A stretch of 64,000 bases of DNA from Octopus vulgaris (Eukaryota). Positions 21,741 through 60,215 of the stretch are shown here, piece by piece; the first letter of the stretch is position 1; every line of letters begins with the position of its first letter. The stretch lies in NCBI GenBank assembly GCA_951406725.2, contig OX597825.1, positions 57,288,001 through 57,352,000 of the forward strand, in the 5' to 3' direction. The position numbers and the translations under genes were made by a program. Below the pieces are notes generated by a model that saw only the letters and a program-made list of their open reading frames with translations, had not been told where the DNA came from and searched no databases.

Positions 21741-21845
21741 GAAGAAAATGTCGACAATGTGAATGACAAAGTACTTGATATGGCAGATAAAATGAAGACA
21801 GACAACGAACCAGTTGAAAAGAAGATGAAGGTGGCTAATGACCAA
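21741..21845 (+). CDS. Gene 1 exon (EENVDNVNDKVLD-MADKMKTDNEPVEKKMKVANDQ); first in-frame ATG at 21780
   Basis: Acceptor ctttttctttgtcttttcag|, donor CAA|gtatgg, open frame, gatATGg context. The true start may lie in an unidentified upstream exon. Confidence 0.8.
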
Positions 21846-22476
21846 GTATGGACCGCATTGTAACTATTGCATGTATGGTGGACTTGTGGTGGTGCTGATT
21901 GAAGAGTAGTGGTTATTTGTGATGGCCTTCTGATTAGATGTGGTAACAGTAAGCTATCTGGTAGGATTATGTGAGGGTGATGAGTCTACTGGGTATCTGG
22001 GCTGGCTATCTGATTAAATGTAATGTGGGCGTATTTGGTGTGGCTGAGTGATTGATTGGTAGTGGCCGTGGGGTTAGTGGGCATCTAGCATGGCCTGATT
22101 GATTACATGTACTGGAATATCTGATGTGGTCATCTCATGGGATGCAGTGCTGGTGATGGCAGAAACTGTAGATTGCTGAAGTTTGAAGTTGTTAGTTTCT
22201 GCTAAAGTCAACAGAAGAATAATAGATTGAGTTATGGCTCTGAAATCAGTATTAGTCATGTGTTTTACCTTACATCCTTCCGGGGTCAATATAATAACAT
22301 ATCAGTCTAGTACTGGGCTTAATTGAATTCACTAATTTCCTCCCACAAAATTCCAAGTCAATTGCTAGGATTAATATAATCAACTTATTCCATCCCTTAA
22401 AACTGCTGACCTTGTGCTGAAATTTGAAACTTTTTATTATCTGCCACTCATGTTAACACTGTGTGTTTGTTTCCAG

Positions 22477-22564
22477 GAGAATGAAGCTGACAAGACAAAA
22501 GAAAGTAAAAATAAACGCGCCACCAACTGTCGCTACAAACGTCTTGGTATCAGTGATGACGAAG
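22477..22564 (+). CDS. Gene 1 exon (ENEADKTKESKNKRATNCRYKRLGISDDE)
   Basis: Acceptor tttgtttccag|, donor GAAG|gttagt. Phase 0 in, phase 1 out, consistent with the flanking exons. Confidence 0.85.
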
Positions 22565-25149: not shown

Positions 25150-26417
25150 TCAGGTCATCCCATAAGTTCTGTCCGAATATTGAATAAAGAAAACTATGAT
25201 CAAATGTTATATTTAATTGAAATTTAATCATCAATGTACTTTCCCTGATTATCTATGACTTCCTCCCATCTATTTACAAGCTTTTTAATCCCATCAATGT
25301 AAAACTCTTTTGGTTTCGAAGTGAAGAACTCTGAAATGTCAGTTTCAACCTCCTGGCTCGCGAAAGTTATATCCCCCAAATGATTTTGTAAACTATGAAA
25401 CAAATAGTAGTCGGAGCAAGGTCGGGAGAATAAGGTGGGTGGGGACTTTTTCCCAACCAAGCTCTTCAATCTTCTGTGATGTGATCTTTGCAGTGTGGGG
25501 TTGTGCATTGTGCTGATGAAACATCACTCCTTTTCGATTCACTAAAGCGGGTCTTTTTTCTTCAAAGCTTGGTTCAAACGCTCTTATTCCTGACAGTAGA
25601 CTTGGGCATTGATTGATGCATTAGGTGGTAACAATTCAAAGTGAATTACTCCTTTGCAGTTCCACCAAATAGAAGAACCTTTTTCCCATGAAGTTCCCTT
25701 CTCAGTTGTGGTTGAGTTTTTTTCCTTTTACCAAGCCACTGTTTACGATATTTAACATTTCGATTGAAGATCCATTTTTCGTCACCAGTCACAAGTCGAT
25801 CCAAAAAAAGGGTGAAATGAGTTAACGAGAATGGAGAGAAGAGCAGATGTCAACTCTGGATTTGCGGTTGTTTTCGGACAATTCATGAGGCACCCATTTT
25901 CCAAGTTTAGGAACCTCTCCGAGTTGTTGAAGATGAAATGAACAGTTGTATGGTTTGAACTAAGCTTTATTGCCAATTCTTCAACTGATAATGCAAGATT
26001 TTCTTAAAGTAATGCCTCAAGGAGCTTATTATCAAACTTAACTGGACGTTCTGTTCGATCTTCAAGGCTGAGATCTCCACCTCTGTATTTTGCAAACCAT
26101 CTTCTGCAAGTTCTTTCATTCAGGCATTCTTTCCCATAAACTGAGTGTGTGTTTTGAGTCGCTTTGGCTGCACAGTTTCCTTTTTTGTATTTATAAAGCA
26201 TTATGTGCCTCAAATGCTCTTTGGATACTTCCATGTTAGAAAGGGTTTTAATCAAAGAAATTTTACTTCTATTATTCTGTAAAATATTTAATTAGTTTAG
26301 CTGTATACAAATGCATAAAAATAATTTTTAATTCCATTAGCCATTCTAAAATTCGATTTTATTTTATATTCAATTTTAAAATAGGTAAAATCGGACACAA
26401 CTTATGAGACGACCTGA
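25150..26417 (-). mobile_element. Full-length (~1.27 kb) decayed mariner transposon; transposase pseudogene
   Basis: 27-bp TIRs tcaggtcatcccataagttctgtccga / tcggacacaacttatgagacgacctga, with TA on the right flank. - strand MEVSKEHLRHIMLY..., KWVPHEL, TGDEKW and PYSPDLAP motifs carry stops and frameshifts. Confidence 0.92.
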
Positions 26418-29403: not shown

Positions 29404-29623
29404 CCCTTTCATTACTGTACTTATGTTGAGATGCTCTGTTTCATTCAATTAATTTTAAATACAACAAAAAATTTAGTGAAATAACTTAGTTATCATTAAG
29501 TTACTGTTAGGAACATAAATTGTGACTAAGGTTTGGTGGAAGATTTTAATTTAGAGCTTTTTTAAAGAAGACATTTGTACTACAGAGCCAGAGGCAGTTT
29601 CAGCCGAGTTGGTATCAAAAGGG
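29404..29623. mobile_element. piggyBac-like MITE with TTAA target duplication
   Basis: TTAA|CCCTTT...AAAGGG|TTAA. Relatives at ~10930-11110, 16060-16274, 29842-30026 and 50132-50358. Confidence 0.7.
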
Positions 29624-29703
29624 TTAACTTATGGAATTATTTCCATAAAACAATTATTTTTATATTTGTCATTTTACATCTATTGTTTTTTATTTCATTC
29701 TAG

Positions 29704-29816
29704 CTGAGAAAATTTTGCAATCAGATGAAAATGGAGGTCGAAGAACCCGCTCAAGATCCCGTGTTCAGACTCCTGAACAGAGCACTCGTAGCAGAAAATT
29801 AGCGACCCCTGCAAAA
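29704..29816 (+). CDS. Gene 1 exon (AEKILQSDENGGRRTRSRSRVQTPEQSTRSRKLATPAK)
   Basis: Acceptor ttttttatttcattctag|, donor AAA|gtaagg. Phase 1 in, phase 0 out. Confidence 0.88.
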
Positions 29817-30659
29817 GTAAGGCAGCAAAAGCATTTTTTCTTTAACCTTTTTGTTACTATATTTCTGTTGAAATACACTTCTTTTGTTTCAGTATTGAAA
29901 ATATGAAAATTTTAGTAAAATAACTGTGATCATTAAACTATTAGGCAGCTTAGATCACTTTAAGACAGGAAGCTCATATCATAGAAACAGGGACAGCCTC
30001 AGTTGGGTTGATATCAATAGGGTTAAATATTTAGATAATTGCAAATTGTTATGTTCCCCCATTTTACATTATGTTCCTTTATTGTTCCTTCAACCAATTT
30101 GTTATATTTCTGTTGAAATAGAATGCCTTTGTTTCAAATAATTTTGAAAATGATAATGACATGGTTATTTTACGCAAATTTTTATTAAATTGGTGTTTTG
30201 ACATAAATGAACACAAAATTTTTATAGAAGATTTTGAATAAAAAAAAAAAAACAGGAAAAAAAACCTTAGAACCAAGAGTGGTCTCTGATAAGTTGAATC
30301 ATTTTGCATCCAAATCCTGATGTAATTGCCAAAGTATCAATCTTGTTCTGTGGTAAAATTTTATACCTTCTCAGAATTGTCAAATTTAGAAAATATATTC
30401 TGCTTACCTACACTTTACACAACCTTAACTATGGAATGAAACTAGTTCTATTAATTATTATCATCATCATTATTTTTATTATTACCTGTCTTTGTTTTGT
30501 CCCTTCATCCTTCGCTCAGGTGGCAAATAAAAGAAATCATTATTAATATTATTATTAAGGTTAGGGTTTTAACAATGGAATGCTGATATGAAGATCTATT
30601 AATTTATGCATCAAAATAGGAATAAAAGCATTTATAAAACAGAATTTCTAGAAGTCTCA

Positions 30660-31440
30660 TTTGTTATTACTTGCCTTGTATTCTGAGTTTAAATTTTACC
30701 CAGGTCAACTTTCCTTTCAGCCTTCTGAGGTCAATAAGATATAGTGTTAGTCAAGTACTGGGGGTCAATGTAAACAACTGTTCCTTGTCTCCGACAAATA
30801 TCTTGCCTTGTGTTTATCTAAGTAGTAAGTAGTATTATAATTAGTAGTGACAGATTGAAATACTTCACAATATTGAGTTATGTCCCTTCGCATTTGAAAT
30901 TTAAGCATTATTATACTAAAGGCAGAATTGTTAGAGCTTGGAACAAACTGCTTTGTGGCATTTCTTCTGGCTCTGTATTTCGATTCAATTCCCACTGAGG
31001 TCAACTTTGCCCTTTTCAGTATTGATAAAATAAGGTACTAGTCAAGTACTGGGGTTGATGGCTTTTAGCTAATCCTGTCCCCTCAAGATGTCTGCCTGTG
31101 TTCTTCTGGACTAAATTAGAAACCAGCCAATAATAGAAGTCCTTCTTGTGAGAAGCAGATAGGCAGTATCATTAGATTGTTAGAAAAAAGGCTTTGCAGT
31201 ATTCATTCCACCTTTCTATATTCTCAGTTCAAATCCTGTCAAAGCTAACTTTCCTTTGTCCCTCTCTAAGGTCAATAAATTAATGTATCACCCAAGTATC
31301 AGGATCGGTTTAGTCTACTAAAAGTCTGGTGCCTGTACTTAGCTGGCAGAATCATTAGAGCATTGGTATAAATTCCTTTATGTGATAGATTTAATCCCTT
31401 CCCCCAAATTTGAGGCTTTGCGCTTCCAGTAGAAAGGATT
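30660..31440 (+). mobile_element. Cluster of decayed family-B SINEs
   Basis: Repeated gagttcaaat...gtcaactttgcc...agtcaagtactgggg units. Confidence 0.7.
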
Positions 31441-32650
31441 ATTATTTTTATTATTATTATTGTTCAGTAGTCTTATTTTCATAACGTGCTTTCACTGCAC
31501 TAATGAGCGCATCTCTGCCTTGGGTATGTGCTGTGGTTTGTTGTGATGGTAACTATATTGAAAGTGTTTTACATAGGATGTGTACAGTGCCTAGTAGTGC
31601 CATTTTCTGTATATTATATATATTTGTTAGTCCTGGTGTTTTTGTTATGTATTTGTCTGAATTTTTTTTCATGCACCCACTGTGATAGGAATTGTTTCTG
31701 CTTTTAGACTCCACATTCGAGTTACCTTTATTTCCAGGTCTTTGTATTTTGAAAGTTTCATGTTTATTTCTTTGGTAAATCCATGTACTGTCTGTAGTAA
31801 TGTTTCCAGCTGTTTATCATTTGTAGCATACAGCTTTAGATCATCCATATATAAGAGGTGGTTGATTGTTTTGCTGTAATAGTTGTATCCACATCCAGTT
31901 CTGTTTAGCATGTCAGATAAAGGTTTCAGTACCAAGCAGAAAAGGATTGGAGAGAGAGCGTGTCTCCTTGGAATATTCCTCTTCTAATGGGGATGGCTTC
32001 GGTTTTCATGAGTCCCTCTTTTGTCTGGAGCTCTAGCACTGTCTGCCATTTATTCATAGTGTTTTATATATTTTATAATTATTGGTGCTACCTTGTTCAT
32101 GGCTAGTGTTTCTAGGATCCATGTGTGGGGAATACTATCAAAAGCCTTTCGGTAATTGATCCAGGCCATACATAGACCCTTCTTTCTTCGGCTGTCTTCA
32201 GTTATGGCTTTATTGATCAGTAGCTGATCTTTACAGCCGTATGAGTCCTTGCAGCATCCCTTCTGCTCTTCTGGAAACGGGTTGTTTTCTTCCAGATGCT
32301 TGCTCATTCTCTGTGATATTATTTCTCAGCCAGCTTTTTGTGTGTTCCTGTCAGATATTTTACCTAGAAGCTGGGGATCTTATCGTGCCTGGGTGCCTTT
32401 TAGTTGCTTAGTTTTTGCAGTACCTGGGTGACCTCTTCAGTTGTTATAGGGGTCCAGAGTTGTTCAGGTGTTGAGTTCATTGTTTTAATAGACCTTTTCT
32501 GTGGTTGTTCCTTCATCGACCATATTTCTTTCCAAAATTCTTCCACTTCAGCTGTTGGCGCTGCATTGATGTCTATTTTATTTTTGCTAAGTTCTTGGTA
32601 GGATCTTTTGGGGTTGGAGTTGAACTGTTTGTTTTGTTCAAAGAAACATT
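31440..32650 (-). mobile_element. Internally deleted R4/Dong-clade non-LTR retrotransposon
   Basis: [41 protein letters not shown] and KYKDLEIKVTRMW...PITVGA motifs. (TAA)n 3' tail near 31440-31460. Confidence 0.85.
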
Positions 32651-32895
32651 GGCGTTTCTCATACTAGGCTTACAAAGAATAAGTCCTGAGGCTCGATTTG
32701 CTCGACTAAGGGCAGTACTCCAGCATGGCCACGGACAAATGACTGAAACAAGTAAAGGATATATTTTTCTTTTTATATTGGCTACTTTTTCCTCTCGTTC
32801 ATAAACTGAAACCTCTTTTGCATATGTGTGTGTGTTTGTGTTATACATATATGTGTATAAATTATTCAGTTTTTGTGTTTTCTTTTTGCTTTCAG

Positions 32896-33225
32896 GAAAC
32901 AAAGCCTGCAGCCAAACCAGGGCGGAAAGAGAAGAAAGCTGCCTCAGCAGGAGATGCTGCACCTGCCGTTGCTGATGAAGAAGTAAAGGCTGATGGTGAG
33001 AAGGCTGATGAAGTAAAAGCTGAGGATGCAGAACCTGTTGAGAAGGAGGAAGCTGCTGCTGAAGATGAGGTCAAGGAAGAAACTGCTGACGGTGAAGTGA
33101 AAGAAAATGATGAACATGAGAAGGAAAATGATGAGTCTAAAGCAGAGGAAGCTGATGAAGAAGTGAAAGAAGAGGAGAAAGCTAATGAAGAAAGTTCCAA
33201 GGAAGAGAATGCTGGGACAGAATAG
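32896..33225 (+). CDS. Gene 1 last coding exon: Lys/Pro/Ala linker and Glu/Asp-rich tail; complete product ~198 aa disordered basic-acidic protein (HMGN-like architecture)
   Basis: Acceptor tctttttgctttcag|, frame continuous with the previous exon, TAG at 33223-33225, coding-like codon usage. Confidence 0.9.
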   Translation, partial: ETKPAAKPGRKEKKAASAGDAAPAVADEEVKADGEKADEVKAEDAEPVEKEEAAAEDEVKEETADGEVKENDEHEKENDESKAEEADEEVKEEEKANEESSKEENAGTE

Positions 33226-36010
33226 ATATTATTTTTTCACTCATTAACGTTCATTACTTGATATATCTCAACATAGATTTGTTCCAACAACTTCATGACA
33301 ACATAAATCAAATCTTCTATTCATTTTTATTATTTTAAATTTTTTTCTCTCTCCCCTTCCTGCAATCATTATCATTTGCAGTTTTATTAAAATACTAAAA
33401 TAATTCATACAATATTTATGATTCTTGTTGATTTTGTTTGTTTTTTTTTTTAAATATTTTTATGTTTAATTTCTAATTTCAGTTTTGCATTTGAAATGGA
33501 TTATTGTGTTTTTCCTTTTTTTTTAATTTACTTTTTTCTATTGACAATTTATTTTCTGTTGGTTGTGGGGTGAAAACTTTTTTTGTTTTTTAAAAGTTTC
33601 TCTTGAATTTTGATTGTCAATAGTCAGACAACCAAGATTTGTGTGTATGTGTGGGGGGCTTACATCTAGAAAGGATTAGTAAGGTTTCTGTTAAGTGCAG
33701 TAGTTAGATGAGTAACGCTACTAGATCATTGTCTTTAATGAAGTTCCAGGAAGAAATAATTGCAAATGTTTGCTTCTTCTCCATATCCCCTCCCATTTGA
33801 TTTCTTTAGGCCTACAAGAGGATTTGAACACTGCCATGCCAGTTTATAGTCCTGCTGCTGCTTACATGAAATGAACTGGCCAATCATTGCATAATGTCTT
33901 GACTATGGTCATACTTCAGTAGCAATGACAAGATATGAGAACTTCCATGCTCTTAGCAAAGTTATTTCTAATATCATAATGTGAAGTGGAATTCTGAGAT
34001 TTTAGGACAATTCTGTAGTCCAATATTAAGCAGTAAGTAGCACAATGATATTGCAGAATTAACGAGAACTAACATACTTTCACTTCCTCCACCTCAAAAT
34101 GGTGTTGTTGGAACAACATTGTAAAGTGTGAGAGAGAAATGCACATATCAAATCTATTGATATTCCTATCTTGCTATCCTTATATAATTATAGATGATAA
34201 AAATGTTGATTGATTTCTCCAGTCACACATTACATCATATAAAGAGAGTTAAGATAAAAGGTGTTGGATGAGTGCACATACTAGGCTTCATGGCTAGAGA
34301 GAGAGTAAATGATTGGGTAGTTAGTTATGTAAGGAGTTATATATGAATAAGAATTTGTTTTTTTATTATTTCATTTTAAAGTAAATATTTTTCTTTCGAA
34401 AATTAGTATTCATTTCATCATTTTGTATAAGCACCAAGAAATTTGATAAAAGTTAGCTTATAATTATTACATGTGTGCCATATTTTGTGTCACATTGAGA
34501 GTAACACTTTAGTTTGCAATAAACCTGTGTGTGTATATGTCTATATGTATCTATCTACACGCACGTTTATTGCAAACTAAAGTGTTACTCTTAATGTGCC
34601 AGGAAATATATAATATATACCTGTTTATTGCAAATATTAAAATTGAAGTTCAAAGTTTAATAAAGATAAAATGCAAACATTAGAAAAGTTATAAGATAAC
34701 GGTGTGTATGTATGTGTGGCTGTGTGGTTTTTGAGACGGGTTTCCAGCCTTGGAAACTGACTACACCTGAAAGAAATATGGAGGCTATGTGTAAGAAATA
34801 TATACCCTCTTCCATCATTTCTTAGACCCACTTGGGTTATGAAATTTGAAACTGCTAATTTCACTAAATCCAGGAAATTATAGACAACTATGTCTTCACT
34901 GTTAGTCTAAAGGCCTGACAGCAGAGCCAGTGTTATTTCAAGAATGTTTCTTTGTCCAGGAGACCTCAGCAAACACTAGTGGAGGTCTAATCGATTGTAT
35001 ATTTTATTTTCCTTTCTTAAAATATTCACTAAATAATTCTCTTACTTTGTACTTTGTCTCTCTCTCTCTCTCTCTTTAAATTTCTTTAGAGCATTTCAGA
35101 GAATAATTTTGTATTATATGGTTATTAAAACAAATTAGTATTGTAGTTGCAAAGTTATCTTGATGATATTGACAAATTCCATAGTAGGATGTGTGTGTGT
35201 GTTAATTTTCTTTTTTTTCCTTTTTAACATTTTTTGTATCTCTTTTAGTTCTCATTTATTCTCAAACATGTTTTAAATTATATAAATATAAATTTTTTTT
35301 GTATGATAATATCTCAAACCATCCTAAATGTAACCAAAACCATTTTACGTCATTAAGTTCTATTTAACTGAAAAGAAAAAAAATGCTCTCAAAATCTTGG
35401 ACTACTAATATTACTTCTTCTACTATAAATAATAGTAATAATAATTAATTATCAAAAAGGCAGCACTCATTCGAAGTTGCATTTCTTCAAAATTTAACAT
35501 TATCTTTTTTTTTTACTTTTCAAAAAAAGGAATATTTTATTTGTCAAAGAGCTCAGTAAGTTGACAGATGTGGTTTTTAGTTTCATCCCTTTTACATTCT
35601 GATTTTAAATCCCGCCAGAACCAACTTTGCCTTTCAGCCCTCCTGGGGAGGTTGATAAAATAAGTACCAGTCATATGTACTGGGGGTGTGGGTTCAATCA
35701 ACTGTGTACCCGTCCCATGCAACAATTGGCCCTGTTGCCAAAGTAAAAAAAAATAAAATTCATTGTGTCAAATTCTGTACCATCTGTCTGAATCAATATG
35801 AAAAATTATAAATTCTTGGCATATATTCTGTAAGTCATTAATTACATAAATGTTGGGATGTTTTAGAATGTCACATATTAATTTTATTTTGAATTCATTA
35901 TCTGATTGATTATTGATCAAATTATAACTTTTGTGACGAGTACTTATATATAAAGATTATAAATGATTTAATTTCTAAATATGAATTACAAAAATAATAA
36001 AAACAACAAA
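33226..36010 (+). other. Probable long U-rich 3'UTR of gene 1 with several poly(A) signals
   Basis: Nearly TE-free to ~35550. AATAAA at 34518, 34659, 35752 and 35996, ATTAAA at 35124. The actual end is unknown. Confidence 0.5.
34480..34609 (+). repeat. Long near-perfect hairpin (34-bp core stem)
   Basis: 34491-34524 pairs with 34565-34598 (one G-U on the + RNA). Imperfect pairing extends both inward and outward. Confidence 0.9.
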
Positions 36011-36156
36011 AATTTGGATAACTATTTCCAAAGAGAATATATGTCAGGGTTACCATCTGAAAAAAATATGTTTTGGGGAAACACTGGTTTGTAAAGTGGA
36101 AAAAGAAATTGGAAAATTAGAATTAAATTGATTTAAAATTTAAAAACTATGTTTTA

Positions 36157-36555
36157 GATCTGCCATCTTTAGCAGAAAAATCCATCATCTTTTGTATAAA
36201 ACCATTTATTTCTAAAATCTTTTGTAAAAAACAAAAAACGTGAACAGTTATTTCTGCTATGCTTGGTTAAAAAAGAACATCAAAATCTGCTGTCTTTGAT
36301 AGAAAAATAACCAAGTTATTCCTACCACGTTTGGTAAATATGAAGAAGAAATCCCATTAGAAGCTCATCTATTGATAGAAAATCATTTATTGATAACCAT
36401 TTTTCATAGTAAAATCATGTATTTCTACTGTCTTTGGTAAGAAAAGCAACAAACTATTTCTATTAGCTTTGGTAATGTAACATCATTTCTACCATCTTTT
36501 CAGTGGTGGTGGGTGGATAAAAACATCTTTGTCTCACAATTTTTGGTAGAAAACC
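36157..36555. repeat. Array of ~12 degenerate palindromic motifs, consensus TTTCTRCCATCTTTGGTAGAAAA
   Basis: Copies begin near 36159, 36181, 36209, 36251, 36286, 36319, 36364, 36394, 36422, 36458, 36487 and 36532. Confidence 0.6.
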
Positions 36556-36871
36556 TCTTTCTATCGTATTGGAAGTAAAAATAAAATTCATCAGTTATAA
36601 TCTGTTCTTTGATTTCATTTGAAAATGGTAAATATTGTTGTTTGAAGCAGTACAGTTGTAGAATTGAATGGTCTTCAGTATTTGGTTCAATCCTGCTGCT
36701 ATATTCTGCTTCCATGCACCCACTGAGATCAACTTAAAGTGATCTATTTCAGAAGGATGAACAGCCAAGTTCCAGTGGAACATTGGGCCATAACCAGTGC
36801 CCTTGCCCTCCCCATAGGTCTGTGGCACAACAGTCACAATATAAGTGGTTTCAGTTAAAGTTACTTTTGAT

Positions 36872-37099
36872 CAATGGTTCTCAACCATTCTTACCCATGA
36901 ACCTTTTTTGATTTCTATTTTACTCTACTGGACCTCTATAGCCATTTGATGTATATAAAAATAATCCTATTTATAATTAAATCTCATTAGAAATTGTATT
37001 TAAAAAATGAAAATATTTTGTGTATTGTAGGCATATAACCAAATTATTTCACAAATTTTGACAACAAAATCTTACATGGACTCTGGTTGAGAACCACTG
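36872..37099. mobile_element. hAT (Charlie-like) MITE
   Basis: TIRs caatggttctcaacc / ggttgagaaccactg. 8-bp TSD cttttgat / ctttagat. Confidence 0.85.
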
Positions 37100-37234
37100 C
37101 TTTAGATGGTGGATCACAATTGGTAGAACACAAGATGAAATGTTTAGAAGTATTCACCCAAGTATAAATCTTGTGAATTATAACTTTGCTTTTCATCCTT
37201 CTGCGGTTCCATAGAATATGCTCTGGTTATAGAC

Positions 37235-40684: not shown

Positions 40685-40876
40685 TATATATATATTAAAT
40701 TAGAGATAAAACCACTATTAGGCAAATCAAACAGTGAAAATCATAAACCAATACATAGAATTAATTAATTAATAAAATTTAAATTTTATTAATTAATTAA
40801 TTCTATGTATTGGTTTATGATTTTCACTGTTTGATTTGCCTAATAGTGGTTTTAACTCTAATTTAATATATATATA
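40685..40876. repeat. 192-bp spacerless AT-rich palindrome (96-bp arms, 1 mismatch)
   Basis: Centre between 40780 and 40781. Checked in 10-nt blocks; the only mismatch is at 40706/40855. Confidence 0.95.
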
Positions 40877-40959: not shown

Positions 40960-42050
40960 TTAAGTCAAGTTTTGTGTTATGGTCCATTCAAGTAGCGAGT
41001 TGTATCCAGGTATGGATACAACTCACTCCAGACTCCATTTAAAGGTGATGTCCAGGCTCCGTTTAAAGGTGATGAGATCCTTTTTCCTCTTAGATCAGCT
41101 TCGGGACAAATTGTGTCGCAGTGTACCTATATGTTGTGATCCTGAATTGGGCAAGGGATGAACCTTGAAGTTAATGTTCAGGTCGTTTGGGCAATGCTGG
41201 TGGTATATTCTCCATATCATGCAAATGATGTACTGCTCGTGGTGACGCTGGAGAGAGGAGTTTTAAGGCTTTAAGGTGGTCCCAGTAATCAAGATCACAA
41301 CAATTACTCCTAGGTCTCTGATATTATCAGATGCTGTGAGCGGCTCCCCAGAAGGAAGAATGTATGGCTGTTTTAGTATAGTCTTTCTTCCAAAATGGAT
41401 CAGCTCATATTTTCCCTCGTTTAGTTGCATTTTGTTTTTGTACGCCCATTGACACACCACATATAGATCAGACGAGTTAAGTTTGGTCTTCTTCATCGAT
41501 AATTTTCTGGAGCCTAGTGTCATAAAATATTTTCACTTTGCAGTGTTTTGCGATGTTGGAAAGGTCGTTTATATAGATTACAAAGAGGAGTGGGCCCAAG
41601 ACAGTTTCCTGAGGGACACCACTGGTGACTTTTGCAGGGCTTGAGTGGACTCCATCGACCACAACATGTGTTCTATTCACCAGGAACTACTCAATCCAGT
41701 GTAGATGTTTTCCACAGATTCCAACATTTGCTAGTTTTGAGAATAAGATATTATAGTCTACTCTGTCGAATGCTTTACTGAAGTCAAGATATATGGCATC
41801 GGAGTTCGAACCTGTTCCCAAGGCTTTTAGTATATCCTCAATGAGGTGTAAGAGCTGTGTTAGACAGTCCCTGCCACAGTGAAAGCTATGCTGATTTGCA
41901 TTTAGGAGTTTGTGGATCTCCAGGAAGGCAGCTATCCTTGATCTTACCACTCTTTCAAACACTTTTAAGATTTGAGAGGTGAGTGAGATTGGGCGACAGT
42001 TGACTGTGAGGGATCTGTTTCCCTGTTTGAAAACTGGGATAGGAGCCGTT
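40960..42050 (-). mobile_element. CR1-clade LINE ORF2 (RT) fragment, pseudogenised
   Basis: NCRPISLTSQILKVFER, YLDFSKAFDRVD, SGVPQETVLGPLLFVIYINDL and IRDLGVIV motifs with stops and frameshifts. Confidence 0.9.
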
Positions 42051-45000
42051 TTGGTATATAACCTGAGTCTAAAGAATTTCACCAGAGGTTGGTCAGCCTG
42101 CTCAGAACGTGAAGACAGACGAAATACCACTAAGTGTTTCACCTAGTATGCTAACATTTCTTGCTTGCCTTAAACTTTACAATATTACAATAATTTTATT
42201 TTTATTACTTTACGAATCAAAGGATATTATAAGGAAACCTAATTTGACATAAAAATATCTTGACACATTTATAACATCCCAAATAACTCATTGGCATTTC
42301 TATCCACCTGTTTAATTTGACACTCCGACAGAGTAAAATTTATTGTACAGAACAATGTATTACACAGTAATAATAGTAAATAACTGTTACAAGTTGTACG
42401 CAATCTGACCTCACCAGTTTGACCTTGGTTACATTATAGCTGTTATAGCTGTTGAAAAAATCTAACTTCATAAAAGGAATGTTTTGTTTATCCCACACAC
42501 GCTGATTTTTTTTTCTAGAGGTCATAACTTCAAAATTACTTTAAAATACAACTCATTTCTATTTTATCTTTTAATCAGAAGAGAAGGTAGAGGCCAAAAC
42601 TTTCACAGGAGCTCCAAGATAGATGTGTGTGAGAGACAAGAATGCACTGACAAACTAGAGACCTGGTTTGAAAATTTATAACAGAGTAGTTTGCACTAAA
42701 GACACCCAAGGTGCCAAGTCATTAGCATTATTATCACCATCTATCTATGTTCCATGCTGGCATAGGTTGGGTGGTTTGACAGGATCCAATGGGCCCAAGG
42801 GCTGCATCATGCTCAGTGTCTGCTTTAGCATGGTTTCTATGGCTCAATGCTTTTTCTGTGCCATGAGCACTAGTGAGGTCACCATGCAGCTTGCATAACT
42901 ATGACATCTAAAGGGAAAGTTTTATGCTAGACAATGAAGGGTGAAAGTATGAAAGAAGGGGCCAGAGTAGAACAGGATTCTTGCTGTTCCACTCACTGTG
43001 AACATTTGTTATGAAACACCGAAGACTCTTCTAATTATTCCAGTTGCATGATTCGATCTTATTGCTGGGGTGACCAGATTAAATTTTTGGATATGTATAT
43101 TGATAGGTTATGCATTGATCCCTTGTATTTAAACATAGTATTATATCTAGGAATTTGACTAAAATTTAGTTTGTATTAATGATTGTGTCAAACACATCTA
43201 AATTTGCTCGTAGAATGATAATCCTTATGATATGAGACTGCTAAACCCTTTCTCTGTATAACTGTGTGGAGCTGGAAAACAATAAAAATATTGGTGGTGA
43301 TGGATTAAATCTGACCACCCAAGTAGAGCACAGCAAGATTTTGACTCAGAATGCAAAGGGCTGAAACAAATACAAGGAATTTGGTTCAGCATTTTTATAG
43401 TTCAACCAATCCATCCTGCTTCATTGGTACAGGTTTATCAAATCTTTAAAGATGAAAGGTAAAGTTGACTTCAGAGCATAGTGAATCAGAACAAATGCCA
43501 GGAGGCAAACTATCCAACTAATTAATTAATGTTCTTTTTACTATAGGCACAACACCTGAAATCTTAGAGGAGGGAGCTAGAAAATTATATCAACACTAGT
43601 GTGTGGCTGGTATTTATTTTATTGATCCTGAGAGGATGAAAGCAAAGTTGATCTTGGTGAGATTTGAACTCAGAATGTAAAGAGAGATGAAATAGCTCTA
43701 AGGATTCTGTCCAATGTGCTAATAATTCTACCACTTTGCTACCTTCCAACTAATTCATGCATTTAAAATATATAAAATTTTATTTTGATATAAGTGAAAT
43801 TTTAAAATTAAAAAAAATAAATTTAGTTTTAGAAAGTATGTAAGACTGAACAGAGAATTCCTGTTAGAAAAACTGAAAGAAAATTCTAGAAGTGTTTATT
43901 GGCTGAAGGAATCTTCACTGGCTTCTCAACTTTGAAGTATATTTTTCATATTGCCAATTTATACTGTCTCCAGAATTTCTTATGTTAAATTCAAATCTTA
44001 TCACTATGGACTTATCACATGAGCAGAGAAAAATTGTTTTGTGGCTGTAAACAAGACACCTACTGCTCTAGTGTAGCTCCAGTTTGTCTCTCTGAACGGA
44101 ATTAGAATGCTGGTCAACTACCAATAATATGGTCATGAATTCCGACCTCAACTACAACCTGGAGGTGTAGCTCTGAATAAGGCATCAAACTCTACTTGTG
44201 ACTCTCAAAGAACAGGGAAAAAAATTTCAAGAAATTGAGAATAATTTTTCAAAGTTAATTTACATGCCCAGAAAAATGTTTGAGCATGCAAGAGGGATAA
44301 CTATGGGCATATTTTTAGTCTATTACACTTCACCAACAAGGTACAAGAAGTACTCTATTCAAGAAGTTAGCAGGTTGATGTATAGAATGCTGTATCCCTA
44401 AAAATCTGAATTGAAATATACCTTTTAGTTGGAGAGAGAAAACAAAAATCCAATGGCAATTGTTTGTGACTCCTCAAACAAAAAAGGAGAAAATTGTTAG
44501 CAATTAAGAATTAATCTCTCAAAGTTAATTTACATGGTAAGGAAAGGAAAATCTTATTTTTGTTTGCAGACAAGGAACAAATTATAGAGACATGTTTCTG
44601 TCTATTCAGATCTCATCAGCATTAAATTGCCTACCATATCAGTTGACAAAAATATTTACATCTTAAAGAGAGTTACAAATAATTTTTAGTTACAGCCCAT
44701 TTCTTTTAGTTCATCATCATCTTACATCTGCATTCTATGCCAGAATGGTCCAGGTTACTGGAAGCCACTGCTCTCATAGACTGGTGCTTATATGTGTCAT
44801 TTTAGCTTGCCTTCTAAAGCTGGATGTCTTTTCTATTGCCAGCTACTTTATAGAATATTCTGCATTCATTTTCTAATGGCACCATCACTAGAAAGGTTGA
44901 TAAATTCTCAGTGAGAGGACTAAAGGGATCTCACAACCTAATGATTCCTTATAGTTTCAATCATGCAAACTATTTGTAACTCTTTTTCTAAATGCAAAAG

Positions 45001-51179: not shown

Positions 51180-53114
51180 TTAAAGGAGCTGAAATATTGC
51201 AACAAAATTTGTTTCAGTTGGATAATTATATAACCAAGTTTTGCCCTGAATTTCTACTTCAGACTGAAGATCTTTCCATCTTCCAGCTGGAATGTATATA
51301 TCACGCTTTTTGATGCTATCACATAAGTTGGGGGCAACCATTAACTTATTGCCAATAAGAAATTGGTCTGAGATGTTGAGAGTTGTTTTATCATTAGGGT
51401 TGACCCACCAAAGGGGGCGAATAATTGGAAGGCCTGCTTTGATGTCTGAAGAAAGGCCTTCAACAGTTTTGTACACTAATTTTCGATGGAGAGTGATAAG
51501 GCTTTGTAAATGTAATGAAGTTGTGTGATTATATAAGTACCTGCTGTATGACAAACGGACAACTGGCATAAAAGAAGCCAAGGTGATATATCGCATGTAC
51601 AGTTCTTGAGTAATATTGGGAAATTTTACAGGGGAAAGAGTTATGTACGGATATCCTAACATACTAACAGTTAGTGCCTGATCAATGACATTATTAATAC
51701 AGGTATACTTGCCTCTTGACACAAACATAGATTTAACATTGATCACTAATAGTTTATGTTTGTTTAATTTGGAATCGTAATAAAATATTTCTGAACTGTT
51801 TTTGTAGAATGACGCCATTTTATCAACGTAATCTTTTATAGTGTAACTTGTGTTATAAAAGCGAATGTTCTTTGGAATGTAGCTCTGTCCAATTGCTAAA
51901 TTACGGAATCCTCCAAATTCTGGCTTTGTAGAAAGGTGGAGCAATTTGTCCAAATACCATTTTGAAGCATTTGGGTTGGAAACATCTATAATAGCCATCT
52001 GTTTATTTTGCCATTTGACAAGTTTTGTAACGTCACTCAAATCATCCCTTATAAAATATCCTGACATCATTCCAACATTGAATTCTTTGGAAGTGAAATG
52101 GAAATAAGGACTTATTGGATATATAATACCAATATTATGACAATCAACTTGACGAAGGAATTCAGAGATATTTGGGAACTGTTTGGCATCAAAAGTGAAA
52201 TCTCCCTGACTTTGTTGCCAATTGTTATTCAATTCGATGTAAGTATCATTATAAGTGTGAGTGTATTTACTATTAATGAAATTAAGGATGGCACTTTGTA
52301 TAGAAATATTCCTGGAATTTTCTTCAAAAGACCAGATCATTGTTTTTAAAAGTTTATTGTTCTTTGCTAGTTCATTTTGGTTCACAGGTAAAAATATCTT
52401 TTTCATGTTGACATAAGTATCTCTGATATCATTACCTTGACACAGATAATAGTGGAGTTGTTGGTCGGGATATGGTTGTCTTAGGTCTGGCAGAAGACAA
52501 AATAATCCATCATCAGAAGAATTCCAGCTAATTTCAAAAGGATGTGAGTCATTTACAAAGATTCCAACACCATCAGAACTAATCCAAAGTGGTTCTAATA
52601 CAGAACCCAATATATCTGATGATTCTGTTGAAAATGGAATATGATCAGTAGAAAAATTCTTCAGTGGCCATGATTGCCTTGAACCAATGTTCATTCCATA
52701 CCAATTAGAAGATTTTATCTGGTAACAATCAAGGAACTCTTCTACCTGTGAAATTTCCCAATTTATAGAATAGCAATACAGACCGCCTTTTTCTTCATGA
52801 AGTATTTGTAGCTTGGTAGAGCGCTGACTTTGATAACATAATTCTTGAATGCTTTGTTCTTTAATCTTCGGTTGACAAAAATGAAAGCTAGATGTGAGGT
52901 TGATTCCTAACCATCCAGTTAGAGTTATTCCTTTAAATTTATTCAACAGTTGTACTTTCCGTTCAGCTTCAGAGAAATGGATAAGTCTGCCAACCAAAAT
53001 AGCATTGGTTTGTCTTGCATGAAGAACTCTTACAGATATGAAACCAGCAAGAATCAATATGAAGAGTGTGGCCACAGTGTATTTAAGCAGTTTGGAGTTT
53101 TCTTTACTTGGAGT
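51180..53114 (-). CDS. MYORG: MYORG/KIAA1161-like glycoside hydrolase family 31 type II membrane protein, main exon; catalytic residues apparently lost
   Basis: Intact 644-codon frame after acceptor ttcattag|. N-terminal TM (VATLFILILAGFISV). Motifs LGSVLEPLWISSDG, GDFTFDAKQFP, LTVSMLGYPY, PIIRPLWW, SDQFLIG..LMVAP and RDIYIPAGRW. Many N-glycosylation sequons. It is likely a divergent paralog rather than the true ortholog. Confidence 0.9.
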   Translation of the reverse strand, partial: TPSKENSKLLKYTVATLFILILAGFISVRVLHARQTNAILVGRLIHFSEAERKVQLLNKFKGITLTGWLGINLTSSFHFCQPKIKEQSIQELCYQSQRSTKLQILHEEKGGLYCYSINWEISQVEEFLDCYQIKSSNWYGMNIGSRQSWPLKNFSTDHIPFSTESSDILGSVLEPLWISSDGVGIFVNDSHPFEISWNSSDDGLFCLLPDLRQPYPDQQLHYYLCQGNDIRDTYVNMKKIFLPVNQNELAKNNKLLKTMIWSFEENSRNISIQSAILNFINSKYTHTYNDTYIELNNNWQQSQGDFTFDAKQFPNISEFLRQVDCHNIGIIYPISPYFHFTSKEFNVGMMSGYFIRDDLSDVTKLVKWQNKQMAIIDVSNPNASKWYLDKLLHLSTKPEFGGFRNLAIGQSYIPKNIRFYNTSYTIKDYVDKMASFYKNSSEIFYYDSKLNKHKLLVINVKSMFVSRGKYTCINNVIDQALTVSMLGYPYITLSPVKFPNITQELYMRYITLASFMPVVRLSYSRYLYNHTTSLHLQSLITLHRKLVYKTVEGLSSDIKAGLPIIRPLWWVNPNDKTTLNISDQFLIGNKLMVAPNLCDSIKKRDIYIPAGRWKDLQSEVEIQGKTWLYNYPTETNFVAIFQLL

Positions 53115-58619: not shown

Positions 58620-60215
58620 GAGCTGACACTTTCGTGATGTTTTGCTGTTTTATTTCACAGGCTGGGTGTGGACAGTAAATTTTCTTTTTCTTTTTTCTTT
58701 TTTCTACAAAACAAGAAAATAATTTAGCAATCTTAGCATTTACTGTGGCCTTCTCTCTTCTCCATTGCCCCAAGCAATCACTGCTACCCTTGCCGTCATA
58801 CCCAATCTATATTTTTCTAGTTCTGTTTGTTTTTAATTTTTGTTGTGGCTGTGTGGTAAGAAGCTTGCTTCCCAATCACATGGTTCTGGGTTTAGTCCCA
58901 CTGCATGACACCAGCAAGTGTCTTCTACTATAGCCTTAGGCGAACCAAAGCCTTGTCAGTGGATTTGATAGATGGAAACTAAAAGAAGCCTGATGTATAT
59001 ATATAGATATATTTATACGTACTTATGTGTGGTGTCTTTGTTTGTCCTTCCACCATCGCTCGACAACCAATGTTGTCAGCAAAAGAGACCAATAGAATAC
59101 GTACTAGGCTTACAAAGAATAAAGTCCTGGGGTTGATTACTTTGACTAAAACCCTTTAAAGTGGTGCTCCAGGATGGCCACAGTCAAATGACAGAAACGT
59201 GTAAAAGAATAAAAGAATATAAACAATACTTGATTTGTTTAGTGGTAGATTAGTCTTGCTTAAAGTAAACTTATGATTGAAAGCATTCCAACCACGACTA
59301 TACCATCTTTTTAGGGATATTTAAGACTATAGTATCCATTGTCTACCATGTCCATTGCTAAGGGGGTGCACTAGACAGCACTGCCCCTTTGTTATTCAAT
59401 GGTGTACCCTCAGATTTACTTATTTCGAAACTCCACTTCAGCATTATTACAAATTAGTAGCCACCCAGAATATTCCAAAGTCTGGTGATGGGTCTGATGT
59501 CTGCCCTTTCTAAGAAGACATTGAACTGTGAATTGAGGGGAAAAAACTTAGAAGCTATTATTTCTAGTAGCTTAAGCAGTCTCCTAGAGAGGGGGATGGT
59601 GCTGTCCTGTGCACCCCTTTAGCAATGGGCATGGCAGATATATTGGATACTGTAGTCCTAAATATCCTTAAAACGATGGCATGGTCATGGCTGGAATGCA
59701 TTCAATCATAAGTTAATTTAATCAAGACTAATCTAGCCAGACAAAACAAGTATTATTTATAATAGAACAAAAATTAAAAACAAACAAAAGTAGGAAAATA
59801 TAGATTGGGCATGGCGGCAGTGATGGCAATGGTTGCTTGGGTCAATAGGAAAAAGAGAAGGCCACAGTAAATGCTAATATTTTATTTCTGTATTGCCCAC
59901 AAGGAGCTAAACATGGAGGGGACAAACAAGGACAGACAAAGGGATTCAGTCGATTACATCAACCCCAGTGTGTAACTGGTACTTATTTAATTGACCTCGA
60001 AAGGATGAAAAGCAAAGTCAACCTCGGTGGAATTTGAACTCAGAACATAACAGCAGACAAAATACCGTTAAGCATTCCGCCCGGCGTGCTAATGATTCTG
60101 CCACCTCGCCGCCATTAGTAAATGCTAATATCGTTAATTTTTAGTCTGAGGAAGAAATTTTGACACAGGACATTTGACAAGAGTAAAATGAAACAAAACC
60201 TATGAGTGTCAGCTT
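58620..60215. repeat. Large interrupted inverted repeat (foldback) in the MYORG-like intron
   Basis: 59218-59387 pairs with 59591-59760 and 58734-58843 pairs with 59765-59877. SINE A (58844-59217) lies in the left arm. SINE B (59881-60116, TSD agtaaatgctaatat) lies in the right arm. Confidence 0.85.

Follow-up and report, generated by a model that had tools for sequence, protein, structure and literature searches.

Several described systems place a hairpin in a transcript in a way that resembles the one analyzed here, and each of them suggests a different reading of it. The inverted repeats of human 3′-UTRs (inverted Alus) and of C. elegans form long intramolecular dsRNA that is edited by ADAR, and the sections of PMC3458544 on which we draw report that human 3′-UTR inverted repeats lower translation independently of editing, with one case in which isoforms with and without the duplex are found. 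Hairpins can also be born by template switching: as the part of 10.1101/2023.04.19.537475 used here describes it, stems of 30–55 bases arise in one step, there are more than 6,000 of them in primates, and 18 became curated miRNAs. The HIV-1 polyA hairpin masks an AAUAAA inside a stem that would hinder CPSF; its stability is held at a fine balance of about −17.5 kcal/mol, and an enhancer located upstream opens it (the portion of PMC2645353 that deals with stability). Finally, canonical animal pre-miRNAs (MirGeneDB; PMC11701709, in part) are long hairpins in Pol II transcripts, and in molluscs the precursors are shorter than 80 nt, with arms that pair at about 19 positions.

Here we analyze a hairpin in octopus DNA, at positions 34480–34609 of a stretch of 64 kb that we call the window. 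Like the inverted repeats of human and C. elegans 3′-UTRs, as described in the same sections of PMC3458544, it is a long intramolecular duplex far from the stop codon, it is apparently present in longer isoforms only, and it is an expected ADAR target. Unlike them, it is far shorter (45–55 bp), and its arms are adjacent and are not dispersed repeats. With the template-switch hairpins it has in common that the stem is nearly perfect, lies in unique sequence and, at 34 bp, falls within the 30–55-base range, but its outer and inner parts are imperfect, and it may be older or have been formed stepwise. The likeness to the HIV-1 polyA hairpin lies in the AAUAAA inside the stem, and the difference in that the octopus stem has about four times the stability and lacks a usable alternative fold. 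Compared with a canonical pre-miRNA, the octopus helix is too long and too perfect: it would give either a precursor of 86–88 nt or a lower stem of 16–28 bp, and it has no CNNC. The reading that we favor, and that we consider probable if by no means certain, is that a local inverted duplication left a constitutive dsRNA in the long forms of a 3′-UTR, which is likely an ordinary ADAR substrate and involves no switch.

A hairpin with a single dominant predicted fold

The left arm of the stem (34491–34524, + strand) is the reverse complement of the right arm (34565–34598) at 33 of 34 positions. The sole mismatch, G34497 opposite T34592, is a G-U pair in RNA of the + strand, and the 34-bp stem with a lone G-U pair that the initial annotation described is exact (33 Watson-Crick pairs plus one G-U). 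The stem can also be extended to about 130 nt, as had been proposed. According to the fold and the arm alignment, an outer imperfect part continues each arm (34480–34490 on the left, 34599–34609 on the right), and the 40-nt spacer between the arms (34525–34564), which is TG/TA-rich, is predicted to pair partly with itself and to lengthen the helix. The extended arms, 34480–34537 and 34552–34609, have 58 nt each and are 86% complementary, for a total of 130 nt. The left arm contains an AATAAA (34518–34523) that is fully paired in the prediction; downstream of the hairpin lie a further copy, 12 nt long, of the first bases of the right arm (34623–34634) and another AATAAA (34659–34664), all present as first described, and between these last two there is also an ATTAAA at 34636.

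Folding, which the initial annotation had proposed as a check, gives a very stable structure. The MFE of positions 34460–34680 (221 nt) is −80.7 kcal/mol vs. −38.8 ± 3.9 kcal/mol in shuffled sequences (n = 200), which corresponds to z = −10.84, and 0 of the 200 shuffles are equally stable. In a partition-function fold of 34440–34720, the left and right arms pair with each other with a probability of 0.999. An ADAR substrate requires a duplex of 20 bp or more, and the predicted 34-bp core is long and stable enough to be one.

The two strands of the hairpin are not equivalent. The sense strand folds at −73.9 vs. −61.4 kcal/mol for the antisense strand. In addition, the extended arms differ at 8 positions, of which 4 are transitions, and all 4 transitions result in G-U pairs on the sense strand and none on the antisense strand (chance 1 in 16). 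Taken together, the sense-only G-U transitions and the stronger sense fold are a weak sign, read from the sequence, of selection acting on an RNA rather than of a neutral leftover.

How unusual is this hairpin within the window? It is the second among the non-microsatellite short-range inverted repeats, after a 72-bp palindrome, and it ranks fifth in a scan of 150-nt windows, after the same palindrome and three AT-rich repeat windows. The palindrome, which is perfect and AT-rich (40707–40778 / 40783–40854, with a 4-nt loop, and extendable to about 94 bp at 40685–40876), lies outside of the host-gene UTR and folds more strongly than anything else in the window (−98 kcal/mol per 150 nt). Our guess is that it may be the inverted junction of a repeat element.

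The host transcript and its long 3′-UTR

The hairpin is found 1.27 kb downstream of the stop codon of P0003, an uncharacterized protein of 233 aa. Four coding exons on the + strand together correspond to P0003 residues 23–233 at 100% identity by tblastn. The first two, 21741–21845 (residues 23–57, 100%) and 22474–22563 (residues 57–86, 100%), are given as approximate match ranges, not as exact splice sites. The penultimate coding exon, 29703–29816, has its donor at 29816. The coding part of the last exon, 32896–33225, is placed by its reading frame, by tblastn (last match 32896–33222) and by contigs, and it ends with the stop TAG at 33223–33225. The first 22 residues of P0003 were not located by tblastn among the exons of the window.

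P0003 is a low-complexity acidic/basic protein. Records under the names Octopus vulgaris and O. sinensis (“hypothetical protein”) have the identical sequence, which confirms the octopus setting in which the initial annotation had placed the locus, and the cluster of P0003 also holds an O. bimaculoides member. No Pfam family matches P0003. A homologue search with the host protein returned Octopus records only (2 of 35 candidates), and a metagenome scan for it produced 598 pattern matches, of which 0 were confirmed. The names ‘iws-1’ and ‘gelsolin-related’ that the sources attach to this protein we set aside, as they look like labels caused by low complexity. As separate observations, the host protein has alternative N-termini (P0003–P0005), and it is weakly ESM-like (0.85–0.89) to arthropod clusters in which 22–63% of members have DUF4775, which we treat as a lead only. 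P0007, an O. bimaculoides protein of 151 aa, resembles the host protein at 87–89%, differs from it by changes spread along the sequence and by a deletion, and may be a retrocopy or a paralogue.

Evidence for transcription comes from a search of sequencing runs, in which 19 of the 22 runs listed contain 0.78–0.87 of the words of 32897–35800; none of these runs is annotated as RNA in its record. Four of the 22 (X1, X10, X15 and X20), as assembled contigs only, were aligned to 29600–37100 at 80% likeness. All four carry the joint 29816–32896 with GT..AG ends, and therefore they hold spliced RNA. In X15, a single contig extends from the exon upstream, across the splice junction, to 34575, thus including the left arm and the loop, and further contigs cover 34582–36597. 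Because spliced contigs run on to about 36,500–36,600 and the coding sequence ends at 33225, the hairpin is transcribed, on the sense strand of a 3′-UTR. The initial annotation had put the hairpin inside a long transcribed 3′-UTR, and so it is; a transcript that ends before 34480, which it had set against its own reading, is not the case for all transcripts.

The contigs end at 36597 (X1), 36594 (X15), 36531 (X10) and 36476 (X20), with a depth near zero in the following bin of all four. Taking the furthest of these ends, which is a weak hint as to the exact position, the longest form of the 3′-UTR is 33226–36597, about 3.37 kb. The host 3′-UTR thus reaches about 3.4 kb, vs. a median near 380 nt for octopus in the relevant section of PMC9699675.

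X20 is the more distant run. It has no cover at 33616–34117 and at 34620–35121, and has slight cover over the hairpin, which is probably repeat-borne. We rejected this gap as proof that the hairpin is absent there, given that the listed X20 contig likewise breaks off within the coding region, at 33125, and that the records are filtered. The distal UTR, 35535–36476, is found in X20 at roughly 92–96% likeness, and the far end of the UTR appears conserved.

Poly(A) signals and 3′ ends

We scored nine hexamers for their downstream context. For AATAAA 34518, inside the left arm, downstream U+G is middling (0.51), vs. 0.73 for ATTAAA 33386–33391, which is followed by a U-rich stretch, 0.71 for AATAAA 34659–34664, and 0.67 for AATAAA 36580–36585. 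The strongly GU-rich sequence after 34659 has 19 TG/GT dinucleotides, the most of the nine, and this hexamer is a plausible candidate for a minor internal 3′ end. AATAAA 36580 is the candidate distal signal: contigs of X1 and X15, which come from two studies, stop 14–17 nt past its first base, a weak hint. ATTAAA 33386 is the candidate proximal signal. Near it, X10 contig depth goes from 3049 (33040–33339) to 362 (33310–34449), and from this drop one may suspect that a short isoform lacking the hairpin dominates; contig depth is a hint only and cannot rank the parts of one gene.

Across the hairpin, depth goes from 178 to 48 in X15 (a ratio of 3.7), from 40 to 22 in X1, and from 362 to 449 in X10, that is, with no fall. 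We considered whether the X15 and X1 falls could mark a poly(A) site at the hairpin, and rejected it, since X10 does not fall and contig averaging alone gives a like ratio. An X10-like profile averaged over the X15 contig predicts a ratio of 3.2–5.4 vs. the 3.7 observed, so that a proximal end near 33400 suffices. In the contig depth there is no indication of an end 10–30 nt behind hexamer 34518. As for the hexamer itself, AATAAA occurs in 3.9% of the 34-nt windows of the host UTR, and AATAAA or its complement in 14.3%. A hexamer or its complement being this common in arm-sized windows of the UTR, its presence in an arm needs no special cause.

The third copy is not predicted to compete with the hairpin

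The initial annotation proposed that the 12-nt copy at 34623–34634 is a competing partner for the left arm, and that the two folds make up a structure-controlled switch. Neither claim is supported by the folding model. In the partition function, the third copy pairs with the left arm with a probability of 2 × 10⁻²⁶, and forcing that pairing costs +37.2 kcal/mol. Moreover, the third copy would pair with 34513–34524, thus covering AAUAAA 34518 as well. Therefore, neither fold exposes the hexamer, and an alternative of similar energy that frees it was not found in the folding model. What does hold, as a prediction, is that the hairpin buries this poly(A) signal: its probability of being unpaired is 0.005 or less, and opening the hexamer alone costs 10.6 kcal/mol. 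When the RNA is folded at successive lengths, as if its 3′ end were growing, the hexamer stays largely unpaired as far as 34566; from 34572 it is completely paired, and on this model it would lock about when the downstream elements would first become available. Given the specificity of CPSF, editing of the adenosines within the hexamer itself should abolish the signal and not free it.

Where does the third copy come from? Such a copy is expected 0.002 times within 200 nt, and 4 and 23 of 2000 shuffles score equally well; going by the sequence, it is probably not a chance match, and it may be a scar of duplication. That it is a piece of a longer tandem duplicate we rejected, as the alignment ends at 12 nt.

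Sequence heterogeneity around the hairpin

Editing in octopus takes place mostly in introns and 3′-UTRs, according to the part of the RNA survey PMC9699675 that concerns it. Among the 40 of 531 variants listed, mostly in intronic repeats, the ones in the UTR are 34253 G>T and 34397 C>T, and none of the 40 is in the hairpin. Indirect hints of heterogeneity come from the contigs. In X1, X10 and X15 alike, contigs are interrupted within the hairpin or shortly upstream of it. Among the X10 contigs, the one that spans the loop and the right arm (34528–34889) shows 8 differences over 362 nt vs. 7 in 3175 nt for the other four X10 contigs of the locus (p = 4 × 10⁻⁵), and in X15 there are 5 differences in 622 nt vs. 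8 in 3200 (p = 0.047). The bases adjoining contig ends, in contigs only, are A in 4 of 6 cases (p = 0.08). Alleles, loop polymorphism or hairpin-related loss in the library explain these observations equally well.

Copy number and other features of the window

Inverted arms that flank a simple-sequence spacer are the usual look of MITEs and foldback elements, and the octopus hairpin, of about 130 nt, shares it. It differs from them in having no clear target-site duplication, no pile-up in X15 and no second copy in the window. The arm 12-mers occur nowhere else in the 64 kb except for the third copy, and the two-arm pattern had 0 matches in the metagenome scan. In X15, whose contigs total 1,034 million letters, 153.0 of the mean depth of 154.6 in bin 34369–34619 comes from the two contigs of the locus; the depth of a repeat fragment in bin 32612–32862 is 2240–29987 across the four runs. 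In X1 and X10, short contigs outside those listed add 69.7 of 78.9 and 289.7 of 571.1 of the depth over the hairpin, and these may be variant bubbles, microsatellite (TG-repeat) look-alikes or a few true copies. At five candidate edges we found no clean target-site duplication, and the longest flanking direct matches have 7 nt and are out of register, although this inspection leaves room for short TA-type duplications. A high-copy MITE, which the initial annotation had named among the outcomes that would speak against its proposal, is unlikely, judging by RNA assemblies as opposed to a genome copy count, since there is no repeat-like pile-up on the hairpin.

The window also has other repeats and features. 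Broken frames on the − strand at 31550–32660, 41260–42140 and 25220–26290, the first of which draws many repeat contigs, resemble by eye a mariner-type transposase and reverse transcriptases of non-LTR retroelements. At 59246–59881 and 58729–58844 there is a long inverted repeat, imperfect and with several arm segments, which is possibly a foldback element. An intronless frame of 644 codons (51180–53114, − strand) has glycosyl hydrolase family 31 domains (Pfam PF01055, PF21365) and an N-terminal hydrophobic stretch. A 30-nt motif has three related copies at 377–409, 887–919 and 1017–1046, one direct and two inverted, and resembles paired E2F sites.

Weighing the explanations

In the explanation that we favor, the inverted repeat would have been born by local inverted duplication, either through template switching or from a decayed low-copy element. 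The computed folds predict that the nascent RNA forms a single dominant helix of 45–55 bp, which would bury AAUAAA 34518 permanently once base 34572 has been transcribed. The duplex would then likely be an ordinary ADAR substrate and undergo A-to-I editing. The transcript would end elsewhere, near 33400 and 36600, and perhaps 34680, with only the longer isoforms carrying the hairpin. Any effect on the mRNA would be of the general sort that dsRNA in a 3′-UTR has: editing, and lower translation or stability. The second, longer palindrome in the same window speaks for this explanation. Counting against it are the sense-only G-U transitions with the stronger sense fold, the extra short contigs of X1 and X10, and a third copy that is probably no chance match.

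The reading of the initial annotation, a structure- or editing-controlled switch of poly(A) site 34518 with the third copy as the alternative partner, is very unlikely in the light of these results. Its appeal lies in a canonical AAUAAA placed in a stem with GU-rich sequence downstream, in signs of heterogeneous sequence around the hairpin, in the precedent of the HIV-1 polyA hairpin, and in the tandem poly(A) sites of 4,800 octopus genes (the pertinent section of PMC9699675). However, the alternative fold costs +37.2 kcal/mol and still hides the hexamer; the HIV-1 hairpin, tunable at the energy given above, is inhibitory already at −24.7 kcal/mol (PMC2645353, in its section on stability), vs. 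about −74 kcal/mol here; and X10 depth does not fall over the hairpin, and the X15 fall could come from the proximal end alone. We regard as highly improbable, too, a poly(A) gate tuned by ADAR and not involving the third copy, in which AAUAAA 34518 would be locked co-transcriptionally and neural or cold editing of the flanking stem would loosen it for cleavage, or else editing of the hexamer would disable the site permanently, so that editing would set 3′-UTR length. If editing did set the poly(A) choice here, it would tie the heavy non-coding editing of cephalopods to 3′-UTR length, a link that the portions of the octopus RNA survey PMC9699675 considered here do not report. A functional role could also be fixed instead of two-state, if the hairpin had been selected as a mask over poly(A) signal 34518, or as a damper on the translation or stability of the long isoform. 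The predicted burial of the hexamer from 34572 on, before the downstream elements are free, would fit this, as would the inter-arm transitions, all G-U in the sense strand, and the human inverted repeats that lower translation, one of them in isoforms with and without the duplex (the same sections of PMC3458544). We find it improbable nevertheless: chance alone puts the hexamer or its complement in 14% of arm-sized UTR windows, the context downstream of 34518 is middling next to the three likelier sites, and a single substitution within the hexamer would be a simpler way to silence it.

MicroRNA processing is constrained by the length of the lower stem and by motifs, and these rules can be used to score cropping registers along the hairpin. 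None of the registers tried combines a precursor shorter than 80 nt with a short lower stem and the processing motifs. For a 5′ cut at 34502, a basal UG and an apical UGU are suitably placed, but the resulting precursor has 88 nt, TG is at 7% of UTR positions, which makes UG motifs cheap, and the cuts that give less than 80 nt leave 16–28 bp of perfect lower stem. CNNC is present in 0 of the 23 registers tried (34497–34519). In Rfam, 0 of 20 matches reach the gathering score; the best has 47.7 bits vs. a threshold of 100, and the models are generic ones of perfect hairpins. In favor of a recently arisen, microRNA-like precursor that Drosha would crop out of the 3′-UTR, one can say that the 34-bp perfect core is near the preferred stem of 35 bp (10.1101/2023.04.19.537475, the part on stem lengths), and that octopus has many novel miRNAs, with species-specific ones left out of the published set (PMC9699675, the part on small RNAs). 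On balance, a helix of 45–55 bp would be a poor fit to Microprocessor geometry, and we disfavor this reading as quite unlikely. The hairpin is also unlikely to be a source of endo-siRNA, because the sections of PMC12479628 that bear on it find no dedicated siRNA pathway in molluscs. There is still the view that the hairpin is what remains of a MITE, or of some other foldback element, with few copies, its arms being terminal inverted repeats around the TG/TA spacer. The arrangement of arms and spacer agrees with it, and so do the extra contigs of X1 and X10 and the weak Rfam matches to near-perfect hairpins with TA/TG loops (mir-3688, mir-4536), all far below threshold. It is unlikely, though, in view of X15, where just 1.6 of 154.6 of the depth is unexplained when known repeats in the same stretch pile up 10–100-fold, of the five edges without a clean target-site duplication, and of a window without a second copy.

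Conclusions

On the explanation that we favor, a local inverted duplication that yields constitutive dsRNA, the octopus hairpin would be one more fold-back duplex in an octopus 3′-UTR, and of a known kind. It may also serve as a compact test object: it is short and apparently low-copy, it has a poly(A) hexamer inside, and it belongs to a well-expressed gene that likely has tandem 3′ ends.
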